64,000 nt of DNA from Bacillota bacterium (GTDB taxonomy: Bacteria; Bacillota; Sulfobacillia; JAUYEG01). The notes under the pieces were generated by a model. The model did no database searches. It worked only from the letters and a program-made list of their open reading frames with translations, and was not told the origin of the DNA. Both the position numbers and the translations under genes were made by a program. Each line of letters begins with the position of its first letter. The stretch's first letter is position 1. The stretch lies in contig JAUYEG010000070.1 of assembly GCA_030691505.1 (NCBI GenBank), positions 23,777-87,776 of the forward strand, in the 5' to 3' direction. This document shows, piece by piece, positions 14,010 to 42,595 of the stretch.

Positions 14010-14789
14010 ATGACAACAATGCAAGTACAGGCCGCCTTGATGATCGGCATCGCCGGCATCGCGACGGGAGCCGGCGCGCTGCCGTTGCTGCTGTTTACGA
14101 GCATTCCCCGACGAGTTGTCGATGGCTTGCTGGGTTTTGCGGCCGGCGTGATGCTGTCGGCGGCATCATTCAGCCTGATGGTGCCCGCCTTTCAGGGCGG
14201 CCGCGTGTTGCTTCCGATCCTTGGGCTTCTCGCGGGATCGGGCCTGCTCGCCGCGGCCGACTATGTGGTGCCCCACCTGCACCCGGGCGTCAACGAGCGG
14301 GGACGGTCTCTCGGCGGTGATGGCCGGGACCGCAACCTCGGAGGGGGCGGCCGCCGGGCGGTCTGGCTGGCGCTGGTGGCGGTGGCCCTCGACAACGTCC
14401 CCGAGGGGCTGTCGGTGGGCGTCAGCTTCGCCGCCGGCGACCATTACCGGGCTGTGGTCCTCGCGGGGGCGATAGCGCTGCAAAACATGCCTGAAGGCCT
14501 GGCCGCCGCTCTGCCCCTCATCAACGCGGGGACATCGCGCAGACGGGCGGTGCTGTATACCTTCCTGGCCGGCCTGACCGAACCGCTCGCGGCCGTTCTC
14601 GGCCTTGGTCTCGTCCGGATAGCCGCCGGGCTCCTGCCGTTTGCGCTGGCATTCGCGGCAGGCTGCATGATCTACGCCGCGGCGGACGAGATGCTGCCGG
14701 AGGCCTTCAGCCACGGTCATCTGCGCGAGGTCGTCGCCGGCCTGATCGGAGGGTACGCCCTGATGGCAATGGTCGAGCAGCTGCTGTAG
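14010..14789 (+). CDS. ZIP family divalent metal (zinc) transporter, ZupT-like
   Basis: Multi-TM protein ending in the ZIP signature region (ALQNMPEGLAAALPL); the cytoplasmic loop is Gly/Arg/Asp-rich rather than His-rich. Confidence 0.75.
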   Translation: MTTMQVQAALMIGIAGIATGAGALPLLLFTSIPRRVVDGLLGFAAGVMLSAASFSLMVPAFQGGRVLLPILGLLAGSGLLAAADYVVPHLHPGVNERGRSLGGDGRDRNLGGGGRRAVWLALVAVALDNVPEGLSVGVSFAAGDHYRAVVLAGAIALQNMPEGLAAALPLINAGTSRRRAVLYTFLAGLTEPLAAVLGLGLVRIAAGLLPFALAFAAGCMIYAAADEMLPEAFSHGHLREVVAGLIGGYALMAMVEQLL

Positions 14790-14885: not shown

Positions 14886-15527
14886 GTGGGCTGCGTCTTG
14901 ATCACACCACTGCTGCTGGCCCTGGCAGTCAGTTTTGACAGCCTCTTTGCCGGAATGACCTACGGCTTTCGCAACATCCGCCTCACGCCGGCGGCCTACT
15001 TGATCATCGGGATGGCGAGCGGCGTGCTCATGCTGTCGGCCGTGACCGCGGGCGAGGCACTCGGAACTCTTATGCCATCCGAACTTGCGGCCTGCCTCGG
15101 TGCCCTGACTCTGTTAGGGTTGGGAGTCTGGCACCTGGCCGGGGCCTGGCGCCTCGGCGTGCTGCGGCCGGACACAGACTCGGAGACCCCGCTGGCCAGG
15201 TTCCGCCTGCCGCCTCTGGGCATAGTGGTTGAGATCCTGCGCGACCCCCTGCAGGCGGACCTTGACCACTCCGGACGCATCGATAGCCGCGAGGCGGGCG
15301 CCCTTGGGCTCGCTCTGGGGCTTGACGCGTTCGCGGCCGGCCTGAGTGCCGGCGTCGGCGGCGTAGGGTTATCGGTGGTGCCCCCGGTACTCCTCGCCTG
15401 CCCGGGCTTCGTCGCCGCCGGACAGCTCTGCGGGCAGGCTCTGGGCAACGTACGGCCCCTTTCGCGATGGCCGTGGACCGCCGTGCCGGGGGCCCTTCTC
15501 GTATGCCTCGGCCTGGTCAGGCTATAA
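14886..15527 (+). CDS. DUF204 family membrane protein (MntP manganese efflux / sporulation YtaF-like)
   Basis: Two similar halves of 3 TM each; FDSLFAGMTYG and LDAFAAGLSAG motifs are typical of the MntP/YtaF family. Confidence 0.55.
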   Translation: MGCVLITPLLLALAVSFDSLFAGMTYGFRNIRLTPAAYLIIGMASGVLMLSAVTAGEALGTLMPSELAACLGALTLLGLGVWHLAGAWRLGVLRPDTDSETPLARFRLPPLGIVVEILRDPLQADLDHSGRIDSREAGALGLALGLDAFAAGLSAGVGGVGLSVVPPVLLACPGFVAAGQLCGQALGNVRPLSRWPWTAVPGALLVCLGLVRL

Positions 15528-26719: not shown

Positions 26720-28018
26720 ATGAATCGTGGCGCCTTCTATGCCCTTTTGCTGGCCATGCTTACGACATCGCTCGGTGTGGGCCTCATCGTGCCCCTGCTT
26801 CCGATCTACGCGAGCAACCTGGGTGCGGGGGGCATCTGGATCGGCCTGATCTTCGGTGCAAACCCGTTGGTCCGTGGGGCATTCACTCTCGTCGTCGGCG
26901 GCCTGGCCGACCGGCGCGAAAAGAAGAGCCTCATGAGCTGGGGGCTCTTGGGCTACGCCGCGGTTTCGCTCGCCTTTCTCTTCTCCCGGACCCCCATGCA
27001 CCTGTTCCTGGCCAGGATGGCCCAGGGGGCCTTCTCGGCGATGATCATGCCGGTCGCCCGCGCGTATGCCGGGGAACTGGCCCCCAAGGGCCGGGAGGGC
27101 GTCACCATGGGCCAGTTCGCGCTCGCGTTCACGGTTGGGTTCGCCATCGGGCCGCTTGCGGGCGGCATCTTGAACGACAATTTCGGCATGGCCGCTCCGT
27201 TCCTGGGAATGACCGGGCTCTCGGTCCTGGCATGGCTTTTTGTCCGCCTCTCAGTGCCGCCGCGCTTCCCGACCGCGGAGGGTTTGGCCCGCCACGGGGG
27301 ACTTGACGTTCGTCCTCTCAAGGACCGCCAGGTGGTCGGCCTTATCGCGGGCCGGACCCTCGGAGAGCTGGGTCGCGGCATTTTCACCGCGCTGATGCCG
27401 GTGTACGGCAGCGAGCAACTGCTCCTGTCAACCTCTCAGACCGGGCTGATCGTGACCATGCGGTCAGGAGCGGAGTCCCTGATGCAGCCGGTGAGCGGCA
27501 AAGCCTCCGATCGCCTCAACCGTCGGACGGTCTGCATGGTGGGTTTTGTGTTGATGCCGATCGCGCTGTTCCTGGCCCCTACGGCCCGTTCGTTCTATTC
27601 GCTTGCCCTGGTCGGTCTGTTCCTGGGCTCGAGCTCCGGCGTCTCGGTTCCCGCGGCGGGCGCAATCTCGGTAGAAAAGGGCCGCCAATACGGAATGGGC
27701 TCGATGATGGGCCTTGAGGCGGCGGCGCAGGCGTTGGGCATGGCGGCCGGGTCGACCATCGGCGGCACGTTGATGCAGCTGTTTTCGGTTACCGTGGCCT
27801 TTTGGGCGGCCGCGGCCGCGGCCTTAGCCGGGGCCGTGATATTTGGATCTCTTACTCGCGGCTACGTCAACGGACAGGCCGACGCAGTGTTGGTCACCGC
27901 GTCCCCCGGCGCCCGGGTGAGCAGCAGAGGCCGGCACCCTGCGGCGCCGGCCTGCAATCGCTTCCTTGACGCTCCAGAGCCTACTCCCGCTCCGGCACCG
28001 TCCTCCACAGCTCAATAA
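26720..28018 (+). CDS. MFS transporter
   Basis: 12 TM; GGLADRREKK motif between TM2 and TM3. Confidence 0.8.
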   Translation: MNRGAFYALLLAMLTTSLGVGLIVPLLPIYASNLGAGGIWIGLIFGANPLVRGAFTLVVGGLADRREKKSLMSWGLLGYAAVSLAFLFSRTPMHLFLARMAQGAFSAMIMPVARAYAGELAPKGREGVTMGQFALAFTVGFAIGPLAGGILNDNFGMAAPFLGMTGLSVLAWLFVRLSVPPRFPTAEGLARHGGLDVRPLKDRQVVGLIAGRTLGELGRGIFTALMPVYGSEQLLLSTSQTGLIVTMRSGAESLMQPVSGKASDRLNRRTVCMVGFVLMPIALFLAPTARSFYSLALVGLFLGSSSGVSVPAAGAISVEKGRQYGMGSMMGLEAAAQALGMAAGSTIGGTLMQLFSVTVAFWAAAAAALAGAVIFGSLTRGYVNGQADAVLVTASPGARVSSRGRHPAAPACNRFLDAPEPTPAPAPSSTAQ

Positions 28019-28799
28019 GCTTGACGCAGCGGCTAACCATTTCCTCGAAGCGAGCCTTGGCCTGCCCCACGTCCGCGTCGTTGGGGTCGGTCCAGCCGTA
28101 GACCCCCGAGGCGGTGTGCTCATGAGTGTCGCCCAGGTAGGCCATCGCTATCTGGGCGGCAAGCGGCAGGTCCTCGCGGTCGAGATCGGCCACCAGATGC
28201 TGCACCCCTGAATACCACTCGCCCGTCGGCTTGAATCCCTTGACGCGCTCCATTTCGACCAGCTCTGGGAACAGGGCGAGGGCGAAGCCCGTCTCACCCT
28301 TGCCCGAGTGCACGTCGAGGGTCCGGAGGTGCTCACGGAGCCGCTCCTTGGGGTCGCCTGCGGGCGCCGGGCCCTCGGGAACCAGCACCGTCGCGCCGTA
28401 CCGCCGCCGGGCCATTCGGGCGGTGTACGCGACTATTTGTGCGTTGCCGCCGTGGGCGTTGATGAGCATGATCTTGTCGATCCCGTGGTCCACAAGGCTC
28501 TCAATTGTGTCGTAGAGCACCGCCACAAGGGTGTCCTCGCTGTAGGTGATCGTGCCCCTAAACTCCATGTGGTGCGGTGAATACCCGGGCAGGCAGGTCT
28601 GAACGACGACGCAGTCAGCCCGCTCGGCGATGGCCTTGCAGATGGCCAGCGCGCCCAGCGAGTCCGTCCCGAGCGGCAGGTGGGGCCCGTGCTGCTCTAT
28701 CGAGCCCACCGGGATCAGGGCCACCGGGACCGGTGTGTCACGCAGATACTCCTCGAACGCCGAGCGGGTCATCTCGTGCAGGATCACACGTTTGCCCAA
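27981..28799 (-). CDS. creatininase-family amidohydrolase (paralog 1)
   Basis: PVGSIEQHGPHLPLGTD and INAHGGN motifs; TTG start with AAGGAGG 9 nt upstream, replacing the longer ORF-track start. Confidence 0.8.
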   Translation of the reverse strand: MGKRVILHEMTRSAFEEYLRDTPVPVALIPVGSIEQHGPHLPLGTDSLGALAICKAIAERADCVVVQTCLPGYSPHHMEFRGTITYSEDTLVAVLYDTIESLVDHGIDKIMLINAHGGNAQIVAYTARMARRRYGATVLVPEGPAPAGDPKERLREHLRTLDVHSGKGETGFALALFPELVEMERVKGFKPTGEWYSGVQHLVADLDREDLPLAAQIAMAYLGDTHEHTASGVYGWTDPNDADVGQAKARFEEMVSRCVKLIELWRTVPERE

Positions 28800-28972
28800 A
28801 ATACCTGTGCCTCCTTGTGCACCTCGGATTGTACATGTTGTTTCCTCCTCTGGGCTCAAACCCCTGTCGGGGGCAACTGCCGGTCGTGCCTCGAAGGAGC
28901 GGGACGGTGGGCCAAGAAGAACAGCCCACATGCCGCGCGCCGGCAAGTCCCGTACGCGAGGAGGCCAACGCC

Positions 28973-34612: not shown

Positions 34613-35479
34613 CTAGATTGGTGGCGCGAAGCTCTTGAGCCTTACCTTGACTTCGCGGAGCTGCTGTATGAGCCCCACGAGATCGTCGACCATCCGCCGG
34701 TGGTACGCGCTGCCCTTCTCGGCGCTGGCCGGCAGCGGATCGCCGCTCACACCGCTCGGCGTCGTGCGCGAACGGAAGTCCTCAATGGAGGCCGCCCCGA
34801 AGGCCCGGTCCCCCGGCACGTACGGATCGCCGACGAACCATCTGGCCTGCGGCGGCATGTTGCGTACCGCGCGCTCCATCCTCACGAGCTGAGGATGCAG
34901 GTGCATCATGTGGCCTGTCTCAAGTTCGTCGGCATGCCCTATGCCGCCCGGCGCCGAGCCGCGCTGCGCGATCGCGGTAGTGGCCCCGAAGTAGTAGGGG
35001 TCGACAATCACCACCGACTGCCCGGTCTCATTGACCAGCCTGGTCTGGGCTATCTTGAGGGGGGCCAGGTTTGCCTCGCGGTGCCCGTTGACGATGACCA
35101 GATGGCCGAAACCGCTGTATGCCAGGGACTTCCCCACATCGACGACTATGGCCGCAAGGTGCTCGGGCACGAGCGTGATGGTCCCGGGGTAGGCCAGATG
35201 ATGAGGTGACCACCCGTACCAGAGTGGCGGCGCGACGAGCGCCACGGCGGCCTGGGCCGCATCCTGCGCGAGACCGATGGCGGTCATGCTGTCCGTGCCG
35301 GTGGGAAGATGCTGCCCGTGCTGCTCGGTGCTGCCGACCGGCAGCAAGATGAGATCGTCACGGTCCAGGTAGTCGCGCACCTGGTCCCACGAAAGCTCCT
35401 GGAGCCAGACGCTCGGCGGCCGCCACCGGCCGTCGCCGGCTGCGCCAGCCGGACCCGGACGTGCCTCGGTGCGTTCCAT
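34613..35479 (-). CDS. creatininase-family amidohydrolase (paralog 2)
   Basis: LPVGSTEQHGQHLPTGTD and VIVNGHREAN motifs. Confidence 0.8.
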   Translation of the reverse strand: MERTEARPGPAGAAGDGRWRPPSVWLQELSWDQVRDYLDRDDLILLPVGSTEQHGQHLPTGTDSMTAIGLAQDAAQAAVALVAPPLWYGWSPHHLAYPGTITLVPEHLAAIVVDVGKSLAYSGFGHLVIVNGHREANLAPLKIAQTRLVNETGQSVVIVDPYYFGATTAIAQRGSAPGGIGHADELETGHMMHLHPQLVRMERAVRNMPPQARWFVGDPYVPGDRAFGAASIEDFRSRTTPSGVSGDPLPASAEKGSAYHRRMVDDLVGLIQQLREVKVRLKSFAPPI

Positions 35480-35515: not shown

Positions 35516-36046
35516 CTAGTACTCGATGCCCGCGCGGGCGGTGACCCCCTCGTGGAAGTGGTGCTTTATGTCGAGGATCTCACTGACCATGTCGGCCCGC
35601 TTGACGAGCTCGGGGTGCGCGCCGCGTCCCGTGACGACAACGTCGACCTCCGGCCGGCGCCGCTCAAGCGTCGCCAGCATCTCATCGGGGGAGACCAGCC
35701 CGTACTCCACGGCGACGTTAAGCTCGTCGAGGACTATCAGGTCCTGGTCGCCTTGAGCCAGAGCGCGGCCCGCCAGCCGCAGGCCCTCCTGCGCCAGCCG
35801 GAGATCCTCCGCGCCGGGATTGGACTGATCAACGAAACTCGGCTGCCCCTGCTGGACGATCTCGAATCCCGGCAAGAACTTGGCCGCCTTGATCTCTCCG
35901 TAGTTGGGATCGCCCTTCATAAACTGGATCATCAGCACCTTCTTGCCGTGGCCGACCGCCCGGAGCGCCAGACCCAGCGCTGCGGTGGTCTTCCCCTTTC
36001 CCTGCCCGGAGTAGACCATCAACAGCCCGCGTTGTCCCTTGTCCAT
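35516..36046 (-). CDS. cobA: cob(I)yrinic acid a,c-diamide / cob(I)alamin adenosyltransferase (CobA/CobO/BtuR type)
   Basis: GLLMVYSGQGKGKTTAALG P-loop and LVLDELN motif; ATG at 36046 with GGAGGGG 8 nt upstream. Confidence 0.85.
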   Translation of the reverse strand: MDKGQRGLLMVYSGQGKGKTTAALGLALRAVGHGKKVLMIQFMKGDPNYGEIKAAKFLPGFEIVQQGQPSFVDQSNPGAEDLRLAQEGLRLAGRALAQGDQDLIVLDELNVAVEYGLVSPDEMLATLERRRPEVDVVVTGRGAHPELVKRADMVSEILDIKHHFHEGVTARAGIEY

Positions 36047-36160
36047 CTCGAAATCCCCTCCATCGGCCCTGGTGGCCCGCCCTGCCGGCCTTCGCCCGAG
36101 CCGTTCCCTTCGGTAAGGGAGGCGCCTGTCCCTCCGGCGATGATTGTTTCCATTTGGAGC

Positions 36161-36204
36161 AAAACAAAGGCGGGCCGGCTCCATTCACTTGTCGCCGGCC
36201 CGCC
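36161..36204 (-). terminator. rho-independent terminator after the Cys-rich peptide gene
   Basis: On the minus strand: GGCGGGCCGGC-15 nt loop-GCCGGCCCGCC followed by TTTGTTTT. Confidence 0.6.
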
Positions 36205-36214
36205 TGATGACTGT

Positions 36215-36334
36215 CTAGCAGCAGCCCTTTTTCTCACCGTGGCAGGTCTTAACCTGTTCCGGCGTGCATTCCTCCACTTTCTTGCCCTTGTCGCAGCACT
36301 TCTTGTCATCCTTGTCAAAGCAGCCGCACTTCAT
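36215..36334 (-). CDS. 39-aa cysteine-rich, lysine-rich peptide (metallothionein-like); not in the ORF track
   Basis: Own translation: MKCGCFDKDDKKCCDKGKKVEECTPEQVKTCHGEKKGCC, with 9 Cys and 1 His. GGGAGGAGGG RBS 7 nt upstream; the start is 3 nt after the PadR stop; terminator 10 nt downstream. Confidence 0.55.
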   Translation of the reverse strand: MKCGCFDKDDKKCCDKGKKVEECTPEQVKTCHGEKKGCC

Positions 36335-36337
36335 TGA

Positions 36338-36727
36338 TCAGCCCTCCTCCCTCGCCAGGATCTCGCCGCACACCCTGAGGAACTCGCTGAGGTGGGAGCG
36401 CATGCCCTCCACGGCGGCCTGCCACGAGCGCAGGAAGTCGAGCCCCTCCGGAGTTACACGGTACACGCGGCGAGCTGCCCCGCTCCCCTCGGTGCGCCAC
36501 TCTGAGGCCAGGATCCCCTCACCCTCCAGCCGGCGCAGTATGCGGTACAGCGTGCCGGCGTCGAAGCCCTCCGCCTGCAGCCCAAACCTCGCGAGCCGGC
36601 TCAAGAGCTCGTAGCCGTGGGCGGGCTCATCGGCCAGCAGCAGGACCGAACACGCTTCCATGAAGCCTTTGAGCCTGCCCATCTCGCAGTTGCACGTGGT
36701 TCCGTGAGCGCAATGACGCTCCGTCAA
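36338..36727 (-). CDS. PadR-family transcriptional regulator with Cys/His-rich N-terminal extension
   Basis: Core PadR wHTH (LLLADEPAHGYELLSRL...GTLYRILRRLEGEGIL...RRVYRVTPEG) preceded by MTERHCAHGTTCNCEM; TTG start with a GAGGG RBS. Confidence 0.75.
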   Translation of the reverse strand: MTERHCAHGTTCNCEMGRLKGFMEACSVLLLADEPAHGYELLSRLARFGLQAEGFDAGTLYRILRRLEGEGILASEWRTEGSGAARRVYRVTPEGLDFLRSWQAAVEGMRSHLSEFLRVCGEILAREEG

Positions 36728-36748
36728 CTTCTCACGCCCTCACTACAG

Positions 36749-36764
36749 ATATGTGCCTCGCACA
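36749..36764. promoter_or_regulatory. candidate PadR operator (TGTGC-ctc-GCACA palindrome inside an ATATGTGC box; second ATATGTGC copy at 36898-36905)
   Basis: Palindrome ~25 nt upstream of the padR start, in the divergent intergenic region; the 8-nt box is repeated on the permease side. Confidence 0.3.
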
Positions 36765-36939
36765 CTTATTGGCTCCTACCCATCAAAGCACGATCCCGGC
36801 TGGTTGTCAACACCGGGAAACGACCCCAATGTGGGCCTGCGGCCCTTGCGCAGCAGGCGTCCGGTGCGGTATTGTCCTGTACATGGACGGCAAGCCTATA
36901 TGTGCAGCCGACCGATATATACTCAGGGGTGATACGCGC

Positions 36940-37422
36940 TTGACCACCGCTATCCTCTATCTCCTGGCCGCCGCGGCCACGGCGGCATCTTATTTCGCGG
37001 ACCGCGCGCGCACGGTCCAGGCGTTGCGCAAGGCCAAGGCGTCCCTGCTCAACATCCTGCCCGAGTTCTCCGTGGTTCTGGGCTTGGTGGGCATTATGCT
37101 CACGTTTCTTTCGCCGGCGTTGATCCAACGATACATCGGCGCCGGTTCCGGCGTGCCGGGACTCCTGGCGGCATCGGTCGTCGGGTCCATCACGTTGATC
37201 CCGGGGTTCGTGGCCTTTCCTCTGGCGGCGTCGCTGCTGGCCAGGGGTGCAGGCCCGACACACATCGCGCTCTTCGTTTCAACCCTGATGATGGTCGGCG
37301 TGCTCACTTTCCCGCTCGAGCGAAGGTACTTTGGACGGCGCGAGGCGATCCTGCGCAACGGGCTGGCCTATGTCTTCTCGTTCGTCGTAGCGTTGATCGT
37401 CGGGGCGGTGGTGGGACGGTGA
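36940..37422 (+). CDS. DUF318-family permease, half-size subunit A
   Basis: NILPEFSVVLGLVGIML and GPL..AFPLA.SLLARGA motifs of DUF318/ArsP-type permeases; TTG start with an AGGGGTGA RBS (alternative ATG at 36883); no Cys motif. Confidence 0.65.
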   Translation: MTTAILYLLAAAATAASYFADRARTVQALRKAKASLLNILPEFSVVLGLVGIMLTFLSPALIQRYIGAGSGVPGLLAASVVGSITLIPGFVAFPLAASLLARGAGPTHIALFVSTLMMVGVLTFPLERRYFGRREAILRNGLAYVFSFVVALIVGAVVGR

Positions 37423-37973
37423 GAGGCCTGCTGAGATACCGGCTGTTTCTCGCCATAGTCGCATTTGACCTGCTCGTGCTGGCTTTCAGGCCTGCGACCG
37501 GAATCACGCTTTTCGGGCACTCCTGGCGCGTGCTGGCACAAATGCTCGGGCTCCTGCCTCCGGTGTTTTTGTTTCTCGGTCTGCTTGATGTATGGGTCCC
37601 GCGGGAGACCGTCATGCGCTTCGTCGGCGAGCGTTCGGGGGTGCTGGGCATGGCCCTGAGCATTGTGCTTGGGGCGGCGGCCGCGGGCCCGCTGTATGGA
37701 GCGTTCCCGATTGCCGAGGCCATGGCGCGCAAGGGCGCCCGCTACCTGAACATACTGATATTCCTCGGCGCCTGGTCCACCCTCAAAGTGCCGATGTTTC
37801 TTTTCGAGTTCTCAGCGCTCGGCCCGCGCTTCGCAGTCACCCGCTGGGCGGTCAACGTCGTCGGGATCATCGGCATGGCCTACCTTATCGACAGGCTGAT
37901 GTCGCCGGCCGAAAAGGCGATCCTGGGGTCGGGTACCGCGGGCGGCGGCAGGGCCGAGAGGACCCGGAGTTAG
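37419..37973 (+). CDS. DUF318-family permease, half-size subunit B
   Basis: Homologous to subunit A (LLPPVFLFLGLLDVWVP, GPLYGAFPIAEAMARKGA); the ATGA start/stop overlap suggests translational coupling. Confidence 0.7.
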   Translation: MRGLLRYRLFLAIVAFDLLVLAFRPATGITLFGHSWRVLAQMLGLLPPVFLFLGLLDVWVPRETVMRFVGERSGVLGMALSIVLGAAAAGPLYGAFPIAEAMARKGARYLNILIFLGAWSTLKVPMFLFEFSALGPRFAVTRWAVNVVGIIGMAYLIDRLMSPAEKAILGSGTAGGGRAERTRS

Positions 37974-37976
37974 CCG

Positions 37977-39320
37977 CTACGGCGCCTTGTCGTAGAGCAG
38001 CCGGCCGACGCGGCTGAGCAGGAAACCGCCGGTCAGGCAGGCCAGCCCGGCCAAAACGGCGGCCACGCGGAGCCCCGCATCGCAGTCGGGGCCGGCGCCG
38101 AGGAGCGCAAAGAGCGAGCCGGCCATCCAGGCAGCCACGGCAAGAGCCCCTTTGAGCACCATACCCTGCGCCCCAAAGTGCAGGGCCTCCTGTCCGTTCC
38201 CGGTCGCCAGGCGCCGGCTGTCGGTGATCTCGGCCAGTATCGGATGTGGCAAGGTGTACACGCAGGCCAGCATCGGCCCGCTCAGTGCCGCCAGCATCCA
38301 GACGCCCGCTGGCCCAATCGCAGCCAGCGGCAGGACCAACCCCAGACCTGCCGCGGCGACACTCAGCACGCCGACCTTGCCAAACCGAAGCGCCAGCCGG
38401 CCCACAATGGGGATCGTGGCAGCCGTGCCCGCCACGTTGATGAGCCCGAGCCGGCCGACCCCCCAGGGGGGCAGCCTCAGGACAGCGGTCACCAGGTAGG
38501 GAAGCGAGATGGAGAACATGTTGAGGCCGATCCAGAGAGCGGCGGCACCCATGAGATAGAGCCGGAAGGCAGGTTCCTCGGCGACAAGGCTCCATGCCGC
38601 GCGCAAAGGTCCTCCTTCGGGCCGGTCATCAGGTGGCGCGGGCTCCCGCGCCGGGCGAACGGTCACCGGCTCGCGGGCAAACACGACCCCCACCACGAGA
38701 AAGCAGACTGCCGCCAGCGCTGCGACAAGCGTTCCTCCCGCGGGGAAACCGTACTCATCAAACAGGCGCCCTGAGAGCAGCACGATGGTGCCTCCGCCGG
38801 CGATCGAACCGGCGGCCTGCCACGAGGCCATCTGCATCCGGGTCTTCGGCGACGGTACCTCCGCGAGCATCGCCAGGTACGGGATGACGACGACGGTGTA
38901 CAGTGCGAAGAAAGCTGACAGGGTCACTCCGATCCGCAACGCCCGGATAGGCGGTGGGTCAGACGAATACGGCGCCCACAGCAGGGCGAAAATCAGGCCC
39001 ATGGGTATCGCGGCCCCGAGGACGAAGGGGAGGCGCCTTCCCAGACGGGTGTCGGTGCGGTCGCTCCAGCGGCCAACATATGGGTCCGCGAGCGCATCCA
39101 CAACCCTGCCCGCGGCCATCGCCAGGCCAAAATATCCATGGCCCACGCCGCCCGCCACCGTATCTCGTGCGCCGGTTGCGTAGAAAAGCAGCCACGTCAC
39201 AATGGTGGTGGTCATCATGCTCGAGGCAAAAGACCCGAGACCGTAGACCATGTGCTTCCATGCGGGGAGAGTTCTCCGCCTTCGAGTCCACCCCAGCCCC
39301 ACCGCCGCACCCCAGTTCAC
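37977..39320 (-). CDS. MFS transporter (GPH/sugar:cation symporter-like)
   Basis: 12 TM; GRWSDRTDTRLGRRLPF motif typical of the GPH family. Confidence 0.8.
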   Translation of the reverse strand: MNWGAAVGLGWTRRRRTLPAWKHMVYGLGSFASSMMTTTIVTWLLFYATGARDTVAGGVGHGYFGLAMAAGRVVDALADPYVGRWSDRTDTRLGRRLPFVLGAAIPMGLIFALLWAPYSSDPPPIRALRIGVTLSAFFALYTVVVIPYLAMLAEVPSPKTRMQMASWQAAGSIAGGGTIVLLSGRLFDEYGFPAGGTLVAALAAVCFLVVGVVFAREPVTVRPAREPAPPDDRPEGGPLRAAWSLVAEEPAFRLYLMGAAALWIGLNMFSISLPYLVTAVLRLPPWGVGRLGLINVAGTAATIPIVGRLALRFGKVGVLSVAAAGLGLVLPLAAIGPAGVWMLAALSGPMLACVYTLPHPILAEITDSRRLATGNGQEALHFGAQGMVLKGALAVAAWMAGSLFALLGAGPDCDAGLRVAAVLAGLACLTGGFLLSRVGRLLYDKAP

Positions 39321-39882: not shown

Positions 39883-41280
39883 CTACCCCACGAGAGGTAT
39901 GCCGTAAGGTCCATCGGCAAGAAAGGCCACCCGGGGGTGGGCGTTGCCCTCCGCGGTCCAAGCCCTGACGGCATCATCCAGTGCGGCCTCGACCATGGCG
40001 GCCAGAAAAGCGGCCGGGTTTGTTATGTCCGCGCAGCCAGCCAGTAAGCTCCGGCCCCCGATTCCAGGCAGGATTGCATAATCCGACCTGCTCAGGCCGG
40101 TTGCGCAATAGTACAGGTTTTCCGGCGGGATGCGCCTCAGAACCTTGGCCCACATCTGCGGCTCCCACTGGTCGTGGACAAACGACCAATCCGGCGAAAG
40201 GATAAGCCGGTCAAAGGAGTCCGCGCCGATCAGCTTTAGCAGGTGCAACACCGTGCGGTACTGCAGGCTGCCGACGGGGTCGATGTCGGTATGGTGCGCG
40301 CCTATGATCAGGCGCCCCCTGTCCCTGAGCGCCGACGCACCCACTACCGCCGCCTTGGCTGCCTGATAGTGGTTGATTCCCACCCTGCCGCCGTGGATGA
40401 CCACGATGTCGTACGGCACGGCAACCGGTATGCCCACATAGCCGGTCAGCGCCTCCACTGCGCGCGCGTGAGCGTGCTCGAGATGCCCGGCAAATACGCC
40501 GGTCAGCCTGAACTCCCGGTCGAGAGTGACGTTGACCGTGAAATCCGCGCCGGCCATCCTGGCGCCCTCGAGAGCCTCCTCGTGGCAGGGGTTGCCGTCA
40601 AGCACCAGGTCCCGCGCCAGCGGCGAAGCGAGCATCTGCGCGCCATGGAAGATGCGCGTGCTCTCCTCCCCGACAAGGCCGGGAACGATGGCCTTGCGGC
40701 CGCCTGACGCCCCGGCCATGAAATGGCTTTCGACCAGGCCGGTGACCACCTTTAGCTGGGCCTCAAGATAGATCCGGCTGACACGGAGCCGGGTGCCCCG
40801 GGAGGTCGTGCCGAGATAGCGCAGCCCGCCGCGGTCGCGGCAGTCGTGGTTGACTACCGAAACGCCGGCTGCCAGAACACGCTCATCGAGCATGGTGCCC
40901 AGCTCTGCTTCGGTCACTGGCCTGTGCGTGCCGGTTGCGACGAGCACTGTCACCCGTTCGGGAGAAAACCCCGCTTGCAGCAGTACTTCGACAACCGGCC
41001 AGAGGATGCCGCTCTCGCTTCGATACGGCACGGGGCGGGTGTTGTCGGATATGACGACGCAGGCCTGTGCGAGGGCGTCGCGGGCAATCGCGCCCCGGGC
41101 GATGTGTGCCAGGGGCGGCGTGCCGATGGGCGAGGCCAGGGCGGCCCGCACAGCTGCACCCGGGTCTGCCAGCGGCCGCGACGGAGCCATAGTGAGAATG
41201 TCTGCGTCTTGCCGCAACTGAAAAGCAACCTTGAACGAACCAAGGTCCATCGTTACCTGCCGGGTTTCGCGGCCGGCCAT
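39883..41280 (-). CDS. LarA-family (nickel-pincer-dependent lactate racemase-like, DUF2088) protein
   Basis: VLVATGTHRP motif and conserved His residues of LarA homologs; 465 aa. Confidence 0.75.
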   Translation of the reverse strand: MAGRETRQVTMDLGSFKVAFQLRQDADILTMAPSRPLADPGAAVRAALASPIGTPPLAHIARGAIARDALAQACVVISDNTRPVPYRSESGILWPVVEVLLQAGFSPERVTVLVATGTHRPVTEAELGTMLDERVLAAGVSVVNHDCRDRGGLRYLGTTSRGTRLRVSRIYLEAQLKVVTGLVESHFMAGASGGRKAIVPGLVGEESTRIFHGAQMLASPLARDLVLDGNPCHEEALEGARMAGADFTVNVTLDREFRLTGVFAGHLEHAHARAVEALTGYVGIPVAVPYDIVVIHGGRVGINHYQAAKAAVVGASALRDRGRLIIGAHHTDIDPVGSLQYRTVLHLLKLIGADSFDRLILSPDWSFVHDQWEPQMWAKVLRRIPPENLYYCATGLSRSDYAILPGIGGRSLLAGCADITNPAAFLAAMVEAALDDAVRAWTAEGNAHPRVAFLADGPYGIPLVG

Positions 41281-41281
41281 T

Positions 41282-42595
41282 CTACGCGCTCCCCTGTACT
41301 GACGGTATCAAGTCCAGATCACCGGCGACCGCGGACTCAAGCAGAGGGCCTAAGTACTTTTCAACCTGATCGGCCTCAACGGGCACCGGCATGTTACGCA
41401 GTTTCATAGCAAGCTGCGGGTTCTTGGCGGCCGCCAAGGTCCGGTCGATGTGCGAGCGCGCGAACCCCGGGAGCTCTCCCAGCGTCGTCGGGTAGCCGAG
41501 TGACCGGCTCAGTTTGAGCATCCCGCGGGCGACAGCCAACCCCAGTTCCCGGCCATGCAGGGTATCGAGGCCGGCATCGACGTAGCCATACCTTGCGTAA
41601 ATCTCCCCCGCCGCACGTACGCGGTCCTCCATCGCCGGGGCAAAAAACACGGCGTAGTAGGGGTTCAGGATGGCGCAGGCACGCCCGTGCGAGGCCACAT
41701 CAACCAGCGAAAAGCTGTTCAGGTGCGGGCCGCTGGTGCCGCCCACCATGATCGCGTAACCCCCGATGTCGGTGCCAAGGGCCAGAGCCTCGCGGGCCTC
41801 CCGATCGTAGAGATCACGGATCGCCACAGGCAGATATTTGACGATGAGTTCAAGTCCGGTGAGTATCGCCGCCTGCGGGCCCTCACCGGTTCCCACGCCG
41901 GGGCCTGCCCCCAGGCTCCAGAAAACCTCCAAGCAGTGGGCTGCCCCGTCAAACGCCCCGTCGAGCGTCAATGCAGCTGGGGCCCCACAGGTCAGCTCGT
42001 GGTCAAAGACGGCACGGGGAGGCACTATCGCGTCGTCGACGATAAGCTTTTTCTGGGCGGCGGCGGGGTCGGTGATGTTGGAGTACTTGGTGAGATGAGC
42101 AGCCGAGCTCGCAGCTGTCTGCACGGCAACCAAAGGGGTCAGCCGTGCACCGGCGGCGCCGAGCGCCCGGGAAACCTCACCCATGCCGAAAAAGGCTTCG
42201 AGCAAGCCGTCCTGCTGCGGCAAGGCCGCGAGTACAAGCGCTGCCTTGGCCGCATCGATGGTGCTGCCGCCGCCGACAGCCACGACTACGTCCGGCTGGT
42301 GATCGAGCATCGCCGCATGCAGGCGGTAGACATCCGCACGGGGCGCGTTGGGCGCGGCGCCGACAACCGGGCCGTCCCCGGCGACCGCCACCCCGGCGGA
42401 GGCGAGAGAGGCTAGGAGTGCCGTGACACCGGGCCCCAACCACGCCGATTGATTCGCGATAACTAGCGCCTTGTGGCCCACACTCGCGGCGTGCCTGCCC
42501 GTCTCCCCTATGGCGCCCCATCCAAAGGTGTAAGTCTCTCCGCGCCATGCCTCCAGCAGGTGGCCGGCCCTTTCCAGCAACGACACGGAAGTCAC
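41282..42595 (-). CDS. iron-containing (group III) alcohol dehydrogenase family protein
   Basis: GGGSTIDAAKA NAD-binding motif and His-rich metal site. Confidence 0.85.
   Translation of the reverse strand: MTSVSLLERAGHLLEAWRGETYTFGWGAIGETGRHAASVGHKALVIANQSAWLGPGVTALLASLASAGVAVAGDGPVVGAAPNAPRADVYRLHAAMLDHQPDVVVAVGGGSTIDAAKAALVLAALPQQDGLLEAFFGMGEVSRALGAAGARLTPLVAVQTAASSAAHLTKYSNITDPAAAQKKLIVDDAIVPPRAVFDHELTCGAPAALTLDGAFDGAAHCLEVFWSLGAGPGVGTGEGPQAAILTGLELIVKYLPVAIRDLYDREAREALALGTDIGGYAIMVGGTSGPHLNSFSLVDVASHGRACAILNPYYAVFFAPAMEDRVRAAGEIYARYGYVDAGLDTLHGRELGLAVARGMLKLSRSLGYPTTLGELPGFARSHIDRTLAAAKNPQLAMKLRNMPVPVEADQVEKYLGPLLESAVAGDLDLIPSVQGSA

Follow-up and report, generated by a model that had tools for sequence, protein, structure and literature searches.

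The 64,000-nt stretch of DNA analysed here (the window) is part of contig JAUYEG010000070.1 of the Bacillota bacterium assembly GCA_030691505.1, and at positions 36161–37973 it holds a compact locus in which the gene of a PadR-family repressor with a Cys/His-rich N-terminus is followed directly by the gene of a 39-residue Cys-rich peptide and faces a divergent pair of half-size DUF318 permease genes. The lineage of the window has been found only in metagenome contigs and in one NCBI metagenome-assembled genome (MAG). The locus consists of the following features:

36161–36205, minus strand: rho-independent terminator of the padR–peptide transcript, with a 12-bp G+C stem, a 14-nt loop and a UUUGUUUU tail
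36215–36334, minus strand: gene of the 39-aa Cys/Lys-rich peptide, with orthologues and distant homologues (module alignments A3 and A4)
36342–36351, minus strand: Shine-Dalgarno (SD) sequence GGGAGGAGGG of the peptide gene, within the last PadR codons and 7 nt before the ATG
36338–36727, minus strand: PadR-family repressor of 129 aa with a TTG start (36727); Pfam PadR (PF03551), 1.2e-16
36680–36727, minus strand: N-terminal Cys/His extension of PadR, conserved in frame, the presumed ligand-sensing tail
36749–36768, no strand assigned: PadR-proximal operator-like box, ATATGTGC plus an imperfect dyad, between the −10 and the PadR ribosome-binding site (RBS)
36782–36810, minus strand: likely padR promoter, TTGACA (36810–36805), 17 nt, TTTGAT (36787–36782), at a position shared with orthologues
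36898–36905, no strand assigned: permease-proximal ATATGTGC box, 35 nt upstream of the permease start
36940–37422, plus strand: first half-size DUF318/ArsP_1-like permease subunit, 160 aa, TTG start; Pfam ArsP_1, E = 2.8e-5
37419–37973, plus strand: second half-size DUF318/ArsP_1-like permease subunit, 184 aa, GTG start; Pfam ArsP_1, 33.0 bits

The peptide, MKCGCFDKDDKKCCDKGKKVEECTPEQVKTCHGEKKGCC, has 39 residues, among them eight Cys (positions 3, 5, 13, 14, 23, 31, 38 and 39; an earlier note on this DNA had counted nine), 10 Lys, one His and one Phe. The layout described in the same note, a 120-nt open reading frame (ORF) with a strong RBS at 7 nt, a 3-nt gap from PadR and a terminator 10 nt downstream, is borne out by the sequence. 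The PadR stop codon occupies 36338–36340, 3 nt from the peptide ATG, and the terminator hairpin (36168–36205), which lies 10 nt past the peptide TAG, reaches −38.6 kcal/mol (z = −4.2), a value equalled by none of 200 shuffles. A scan for consensus promoters and terminators called neither this terminator, solely because its 14-nt loop is too long, nor the padR promoter, because of its weak −10. The peptide gene is absent from the NCBI record and is called by the Logan and JGI gene callers, with the exact peptide recorded solely from Logan.

The 39-aa ORF is a genuine gene under purifying selection. A homologue search over a collection of 5.8 billion proteins returned two homologues of the peptide, and PadR orthologues led to four more contigs. 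In all six of these related metagenome contigs the ORF directly follows PadR at a spacing of 3–6 nt, with the RBS and the terminator stem maintained, in the syntenic order MFS, permease halves, PadR, peptide, CobA; conservation of the peptide and of its synteny with PadR, proposed earlier as a check, is thereby confirmed, and the proposed two-gene unit is supported, the peptide gene being co-transcribed and tightly coupled with the Cys/His-extended PadR in a layout that orthologues keep. The element GGAGGAGGGCTGA forms the SD of the peptide gene in every orthologous locus, and the terminator stem GGCGGGCCGG...CCGGCCCGCC together with TTTG is kept in L001, L002, L004, L005, L006 and L007. The pairwise ratio of nonsynonymous to synonymous substitution rates (dN/dS) of the peptide gene is 0.02–0.27 at a dS of 0.4 to above 1, where synonymous sites are near saturation; seven Cys/His positions are retained among the orthologues, and length differences leave the reading frame intact. 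The opposite explanation, a chance ORF or a non-coding spacer between PadR and the terminator, can point to the mere 120 nt and to the missing NCBI annotation, but it is refuted by conservation: the low dN/dS, the frame-preserving length changes, the conserved RBS and the distant homologues leave it practically no probability.

The distant homologues extend well beyond the close orthologues, persisting at PadR identities of 40–70% and in hundreds of metagenome contigs. P0137 (MTKCGCKCEPVKAQETEKCCDKGKKPMDCTPEQVKACHGESKPS) overlaps the stop codon of a 62%-identical PadR that has a His-rich Cys tail (L092), in L096 a 70%-identical PadR is followed by the peptide MSLKGCGCQPKDAGCCEKGKKPAECTPEQIKTCHGDQK, and in L076, a Bacillota-like MAG, the homologous peptide MAGKCSCEHPEKLKGKPGECSPEQIKECHGGKEHPCEKKKQ is encoded just upstream of PadR and the two permease halves. 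The L076 peptide gene is at the same time the last gene of an ABC-2 exporter operon and has its own RBS and terminator; in L092, ACC-CAG-ACC-GCG-like repeats stand directly after the peptide gene (L092:5108-5269) and can be read as an ORF of 53 aa with TQTA/TETE repeats, which overlaps the end of that gene. Pfam and NCBIfam scans of the peptide and its homologues gave no match at E <= 10, metallothionein families included, and a PDB sequence search with a two-unit homologue of the peptide gave none either.

The PadR protein has 41 relatives in the PDB, among them 2esh, 4ejo and Rv3488. In its AlphaFold2 (AF2) model, with a predicted local distance difference test score (pLDDT) of 84, helices span residues 22–33, 38–47 and 57–69, strands 73–78 and 86–91, and a C-terminal helix 93–128, a prediction that conforms to the standard subfamily-2 architecture of a winged helix-turn-helix (wHTH) followed by a long C-terminal helix. 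Residues 1–13 are predicted to be disordered, as would be expected of a tail that becomes ordered by a ligand. The tail reads M-T-E-R-H-C-A-H-G-T-T-C-N-C-E-M, HCAHGTTCNCEM being residues 5–16 counted from TTG 36727. Orthologous PadRs begin with an ATG at the equivalent position and hold M-T-E/Q-H-R-C-x2-3-H-x3-4-C-x-C-E-M in frame, from which it follows that the extension is translated; the N-terminal Cys/His extension noticed earlier is thus real, and the start of the 129-aa form is backed by the orthologues as well as by the NCBI call (MDP2871918.1). The tail is conserved in P0004–P0007, L092 and L096, and as MC..H..CxC in 32 distant PadRs.

These distant proteins come from a PadR alignment scan of a genome collection, which yielded 80 loci at 35–50% identity; no close orthologue was found in that collection, the best match being 47% identical. 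An N-terminal MC..H..CxC or CC extension is present in 32 of the 80 PadRs, and by a strict test a Cys/His-rich partner gene follows 14 of these 32 and none of the 48 PadRs that do not have the motif (p = 3e-7); beyond the strict count, more partner genes of N-Cys PadRs qualify by eye. The partners form a second family, mostly from Chloroflexota and apparently unrelated to the window peptide, of 63–103 aa with a Cys/His-rich N-terminus (MCxxCGC, CCC or His-rich), reminiscent of the N-terminal nickel site of HypB, and a coiled-coil tail RRYQTKAEQI..LE.YL.ELK. They are encoded in L003:6388-6609, L010-L012, L014-L018, L020-L023, L028, L030, L031, L035, L037 and L088:6001-6210, and their family comprises more than 260 clusters, every one labelled hypothetical. 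Pfam and NCBIfam scans of the coiled-coil partners gave no significant match, and an assignment to DUF5320 was rejected for want of a Pfam match; one homologue carries a precomputed match to Pfam PF12749, which we take to be a metallothionein family. N-Cys PadR loci other than those with the split DUF318 pair (described below) hold ABC-2 exporters, a CHR transporter (also in L088/L089) and a P-type ATPase, and His-rich PadR tails and partner proteins occur in L092, L011 and L014.

The 212-nt spacer between padR and the permease pair (36728–36939) contains both elements to which the earlier note had drawn attention, the TGTGC-CTC-GCACA palindrome at 36752–36764 and the repeated ATATGTGC box. 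The latter is present in exactly two copies in the 64 kb (36749 and 36898), both of them intergenic, with about 0.62 expected by chance per window. Next to padR, downstream of the −10, the window has an imperfect dyad, AAGTG-N9-CACAT on the minus strand, which is conserved as AAGTG-N5-9-CACAT; the surrounding TAAGTGC...CACATAT block is conserved in L001, L002, L005, L006, L007 and L092, and its window version, AAGTGTGCGAGGCACATAT, includes TGTGC-N3-GCACA. The spacing of the dyad differs from that of the classical PadR operator ATGT-N8-ACAT. At the other end of the spacer, 35 nt before the permease start, there is a block TATTGGCGT-N3-GCACATAT that every orthologous intergenic region retains, and a padR promoter TTGACA-17-TATATA/TATATC is found at the matching position in L001, L002, L092 and L096. 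The conserved boxes would suit a PadR that represses both its own gene and the divergent permease operon. Scanned in full with Rfam, the window shows no riboswitch or other RNA family, which excludes that the adjacent cobA is linked to a cobalamin or NiCo riboswitch. In L076 a perfect 14-bp inverted repeat, TTTTGCCACTAATG-N9-CATTAGTGGCAAAA (L076:3930-3975), stands before PadR as an operator candidate and is unlike the ATATGTGC boxes of the window lineage.

The conserved part of the peptide is a module of about 30 residues, C-x7-10-C-[ST]-P-[ED]-Q-[IV]-[KR]-x-C-H-G-x4-6-C, to which the window peptide adds an N-terminal CxC and a CC pair. In alignment A3, C14, C23, P25, Q27, C31, H32 and G33 are invariant and C39 is present in at least 90% of the rows, with C3 taking the place of C39 in alignment A4. 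A profile of the peptide run against 1.84 billion representative proteins matched seven clusters, and P0136 and P0138–P0141 are tandem repeats of two units, C-x7-10-C-[ST]PEQ[IV][KR]xCHG-x4-6-(H)xC. A metagenome scan with PEQ[IV][KR]xCHG gave at least 600 raw motif matches, and 64 loci were confirmed among the matches listed, to which the counts that follow refer. In 49 of the 64 an ArsR-type helix-turn-helix is fused to the module in frame or encoded immediately upstream, and one of the fusions, taken as representative, reaches 82.9 bits on NF033788 (metalloregulator ArsR/SmtB; cut-off 55). PadR is nearby in two further loci of the 64, adjacent in L096 and about 1.7 kb upstream in L141, and it also adjoins module genes in L092–L096 and L076. 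The module further forms the N-terminus of a transporter of the chromate-efflux family (TIGR00937) in L098–L101 (for example L099:3986-5326) and the C-terminus of a small membrane protein that has no Pfam match (L102:3096-3635, L104:5-529). Its neighbours include DrrAB-like ABC-2 exporters (26 loci), CHR transporters, the split DUF318 pair (L112, L115), class-I methyltransferases (adjacent in about 7 loci, L092 and L096 included), MinD/ferredoxin ATPases, and ModE with MOT1. That the module is fused to repressors suggests that it works together with the regulator, physically or functionally. Genes for a ModE-like repressor domain and a MOT1-family molybdate transporter accompany CHR transporters in L135:2660-4146, L136, L149 and L155, a recurrence at ArsR–module loci that raises the possibility of an oxyanion (Mo, W, Cr) connection. 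The module has no match in Pfam, NCBIfam or the PDB and no description that could be found in the literature, where queries with motif strings, with PadR plus metal or metallothionein, and with ArsR plus a Cys-rich C-terminus plus ABC-2 returned nothing relevant; the impression that the arrangement is an unfamiliar one thus holds across these sources.

In the fused ArsR–module ORFs the module opens with its own Met-Cys. A canonical AAGGAGG stands 6–9 nt before the module ATG in 27 of 31 distinct fused ORFs, compared with 5 of 51 other internal ATGs (p = 1e-12), and this internal SD persists though the residues that it encodes vary by lineage. ORFs with an internal module ATG are those of L105, L117, L125, L128, L131-L137, L140, L142, L143, L146, L148-L151, L154 and L155. 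The pattern suggests that nested internal initiation yields a free sensor-domain peptide from the ArsR–module ORFs, so the module is probably made as a separate peptide in the organisms with fusions too, and the split PadR-plus-peptide layout would then be the rule rather than an oddity.

A peptide with these properties might simply be a metallothionein-like buffer, which sequesters metal in a thiolate cluster and is regulated by PadR without ever contacting it. A composition that would suit a metallothionein (21% Cys and a single Phe), the CxC and CC motifs, a strong RBS as opposed to the TTG start of PadR, the existence of tandem two-unit forms, and the PF12749 match of one coiled-coil partner homologue (a family identity that we presume) all speak for such a role, as does the layout, since an ArsR-type gene beside a small Cys-rich gene recalls SmtB/SmtA. 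However, no metallothionein family in Pfam or NCBIfam is matched at E <= 10, the conserved core is one Cys4-His unit and no cluster-forming array, and the tight coupling to PadR suggests that expression is tied to the repressor. The placement of the unit in the C-termini of ArsR/SmtB repressor ORFs or the N-termini of transporters likewise argues for a sensing or hand-over module rather than for a bulk buffer. The peptide is therefore more likely, as judged from its sequence relatives, to serve in sensing or hand-over than as a classical metallothionein, and the buffer is rated unlikely though still a serious contender.

The two permease genes are, as the earlier note stated, half-size and internally homologous, but they overlap by GTGA (37419–37422) and not by the ATGA given there. 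Both halves map to the same half of ArsP_1/PF03773 (model positions 10–133 and 15–139 of 294), each spanning just one repeat of the model, and their mutual identity is 26–30%; the first scores 23.9 bits (E = 2.8e-5), under the Pfam gathering score of 32.3, and the second 33.0 bits. By homology the first half most likely starts at TTG 36940, and its orthologues are 77–79% identical. The association of PadR and peptide with a split DUF318 permease, pointed out earlier for the window, recurs in distant genomes: L076 has it, eight distant N-Cys PadR loci carry a split pair 40–56% identical to that of the window, and L112 and L115 have the pair with ArsR in place of PadR, so that permease homologues at this level adjoin both distant N-Cys PadRs and an ArsR–module gene. 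Permeases of the ArsP, SO_0444 and SaoE types have a CSC/TPFCSCS Cys motif (10.1101/2022.07.06.499078), which is missing from both halves. Since the halves have neither this motif nor any Cys, they cannot be filed as ArsP-type thiolate transporters, and the ArsP-type label given earlier is to be dropped. The SO_0444 family has been described as a Cu/Zn efflux family (10.1101/2022.07.06.499078), and Shew_3410, a DUF318 relative beside ZntR, is important under Zn stress (10.1101/072470).

The family membership of the permease invites a further explanation, in which the peptide would be a metalloid chaperone whose three thiolates bind As(III), Sb(III) or methylarsenite and feed an ArsP-like exporter, as ArsD does for ArsA. 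DUF318 is the ArsP family, vicinal CC pairs recall ArsD as well as the As site at the C-terminus of AfArsR, the module occurs with regulators of the ArsR type, and class-I methyltransferases are adjacent in the roughly seven loci mentioned above. Against this, the permease halves do not have the Cys pair needed for ArsP function, the neighbouring methyltransferases score far below the ArsM cut-offs, which also led us to reject an ArsM identity for them, no arsC, acr3 or arsM was seen in any locus, and an As(III) site would not be expected to need an invariant His. A chaperone of this kind is accordingly held to be very improbable. SaoC, a CysCys-COOH protein encoded beside SaoE, was also considered, as the peptide likewise ends in CC, and was rejected: it is a secreted lipoprotein of about 158 aa with an NCBIfam model of its own, which the peptide does not match.

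The coupling of the peptide to PadR is conserved, the module recurs with ArsR or PadR regulators and exporters, and the operator-like boxes are conserved, and a scheme can be proposed for the locus in which PadR and a detachable Cys/His module control a Cys-free two-subunit DUF318 exporter by a CopY/CopZ-like logic. PadR would bind the two ATATGTGC-containing boxes of the 212-nt divergent region and, when bound, would repress its own padR–peptide transcript together with the operon of the heterodimeric permease. The peptide, as a free-standing copy of the Cys4-His mini-domain, would bind a thiophilic ligand, for which a metal ion of the soft or borderline kind, such as Zn, Cd, Cu(I), Ni or Co, is the likeliest candidate and a metalloid a less likely one. 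It would pass this ligand to, or share it with, the Cys/His tail of PadR (H-C-x-H-x3-C-x-C). Ligand at the tail would then release the repressor, and the exporter and more peptide would be switched on. A divalent metal or Cu(I) is favoured over As(III) because Cys-His-Gly is invariant, a second His is frequent and the tails and partners of PadR are rich in His; the Zn/Cu efflux phenotypes of DUF318 relatives bear on the ligand as well. Ligand binding, the identity of the ligand, contact between peptide and PadR, the direction of transport and repression itself are what we infer from sequence comparison, and the scheme as a whole is judged finely balanced between right and wrong. Of the metal(loid) sensing–buffering–export module put forward in the earlier note, the sensing and export parts hence appear plausible, and the kinship of the peptide to metallothioneins finds no counterpart among the families searched at E <= 10.

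Several observations weigh against this scheme. The AF2 model of the peptide reaches a pLDDT of only 63, too low for a fold search with it to be made, and the tandem-repeat versions of the module look more like buffers that scale in capacity. The Cys-free permease halves mean that the transporter itself gives no sign, as far as its sequence goes, of a soft-metal substrate. Moreover, the nearest DUF318-linked PadR loci (L008, L009, L013 and L024) have no Cys-rich peptide, which makes the Cys/His-tailed PadR and the exporter the core of the system and the peptide an accessory. Finally, the exporters found with the module are heterogeneous (ABC-2, CHR and DUF318, with MOT1 nearby), and a general thiol or redox signal fits them equally well. 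Such a signal is kept in play by this variety and by the Cys-free halves, and would make the Cys cluster, Zn-loaded or free, a switch that is oxidised or alkylated by thiol-reactive or electrophilic stress and in this way, not through metal excess, controls the wHTH repressor, for which the zinc–thiolate switches of the RsrA and Hsp33 type are a precedent. The exporters that occur with the module and with N-Cys PadRs are very different (DrrAB-like ABC-2 exporters, the chromate-efflux family, DUF318 and a P-type ATPase), and chromate oxidises thiols. Typical metal ligands are seen, however, in the invariant His-Gly that follows Cys31, in the second His (of HPC) and in the PadR tails and partner proteins rich in His, and the module-fused regulators score as ArsR/SmtB metalloregulators, which makes a redox switch improbable.

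In its proposed logic the locus is closest to the CopY/CopZ (CupA)/CopA system of Firmicutes, where metal handed by a small protein to the repressor frees the latter from DNA (PMC12648655, PMC5646241). The two share a winged-helix repressor that carries a CxC-type motif at one end, an adjacent small Cys protein and an exporter, which is co-controlled in the cop system and would be so here. The components differ in each case, as the repressor here is of the PadR family and not BlaI/MecI-like, with its Cys motif at the N-terminus whereas that of CopY is C-terminal (CxCx4CxC), the peptide has no HMA/MxCxxC fold or Pfam match as CopZ does, and the exporter is a split DUF318 permease and not a P1B-ATPase like CopA. 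On this comparison the locus does not belong to the CopY/CopZ system, and the resemblance would be functional only. The SmtB–SmtA and BxmR–BmtA pairs likewise have a wHTH metalloregulator controlling an adjacent small Cys/His-rich gene, and the regulator in the wider module family is of the ArsR/SmtB type; in contrast to SmtA and BmtA, the module does not match Metallothio_Pro and has Cys4-His in place of a Zn4Cys9His2 cluster, and it is co-oriented with its regulator, not divergent, and also found within regulator ORFs and at transporter N-termini. In its distribution the module resembles the HMA domain, a small unit that is found by itself, as the N-terminal part of exporters and joined to other proteins of its pathway, metal binding being presumed in the present case, but its roughly 30 residues with C...CxPEQ..CHG...C differ from the roughly 70 residues, ferredoxin-like fold and MxCxxC of HMA, and it is attached mainly to repressors. 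The permease shares with ArsP, SO_0444 and SaoE (PF03773, DUF318), a family that acts in metal(loid) efflux, the PF03773 repeat matched by both halves, and differs from them in being split into two half-size genes with no Cys in either. Finally, sensing cysteines on a terminal tail outside the wHTH core are known from AfArsR-type ArsR proteins with a C-terminal Cys site, and Rv3488, a PadR-family member, reportedly binds Cd (PDB 5zhc and related codes); unlike in either, the tail here would be a transferable mini-domain that is also made free, and Rv3488 has no such tail or partner.

The surroundings of the locus add few clues. The ZIP gene (14010–14789) and the MntP-like gene (14886–15527) named in the earlier note are present, but they lie 21 kb away and no related locus ties them to the module, for which reason a role for them was dropped. 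The longest ORF of cobA (35516–36184, minus strand, 222 aa) runs through the padR–peptide terminator; its real start is taken to be ATG 36046 (176 aa), in view of the Logan gene call and of a Pfam match that begins at residue 51. In all close orthologues cobA comes after the terminator, and the window has no cobalamin riboswitch. An MFS_2 transporter (37977–39320), a LarA-like protein (Lar_N; 39883–41280) and an Fe-ADH (41282–42595), all on the minus strand, are encoded next to the module, with synteny retained in L002 and L004. The cofactor of LarA-type enzymes is a nickel pincer, and the LarA-like neighbour could hint at nickel or merely reflect local synteny. Two creatininase-family paralogues are encoded within 7 kb of each other (27981–28946 and 34613–35479, both minus strand); the neighbour of one is an MFS transporter and that of the other a CoA-transferase.

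A repressor, a small metal-binding partner and an exporter form a known scheme, here assembled from undescribed families, with metal binding presumed. Phenolic acids, drugs and envelope stress are the main signals known for PadR regulators, and a new mode of sensing would be added by a branch of the family that combines a conserved Cys/His tail with a Cys-rich partner of its own. At its widest, and more doubtfully than the scheme for the locus itself, the module might be a widespread mobile Cys4-His mini-domain of sensing or trafficking, an analogue of HMA that can be joined to PadR and ArsR repressors as well as to exporters and is regularly made both tethered and, from an internal SD and ATG of the regulator ORF, free; it would define new two-piece metalloregulators, a first dedicated metal- or thiol-sensing PadR subfamily and a new DUF318 substrate. 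The 39-residue size makes metal binding by the peptide directly testable with synthetic material, the module gives a handle on the substrate of the Cys-free split DUF318 permeases, and the ArsR–module ORFs appear to be a natural example of nested in-frame initiation that yields the free sensor domain of a regulator. The module has so far gone undescribed, although at least 600 raw motif matches were found and 64 loci confirmed among those listed, mostly beside or within ArsR/SmtB ORFs; given its abundance in metagenomes and this association, it is probably the sign of a common way, overlooked until now, in which anaerobic Bacillota, Chloroflexota and sediment bacteria sense metal or thiol stress.

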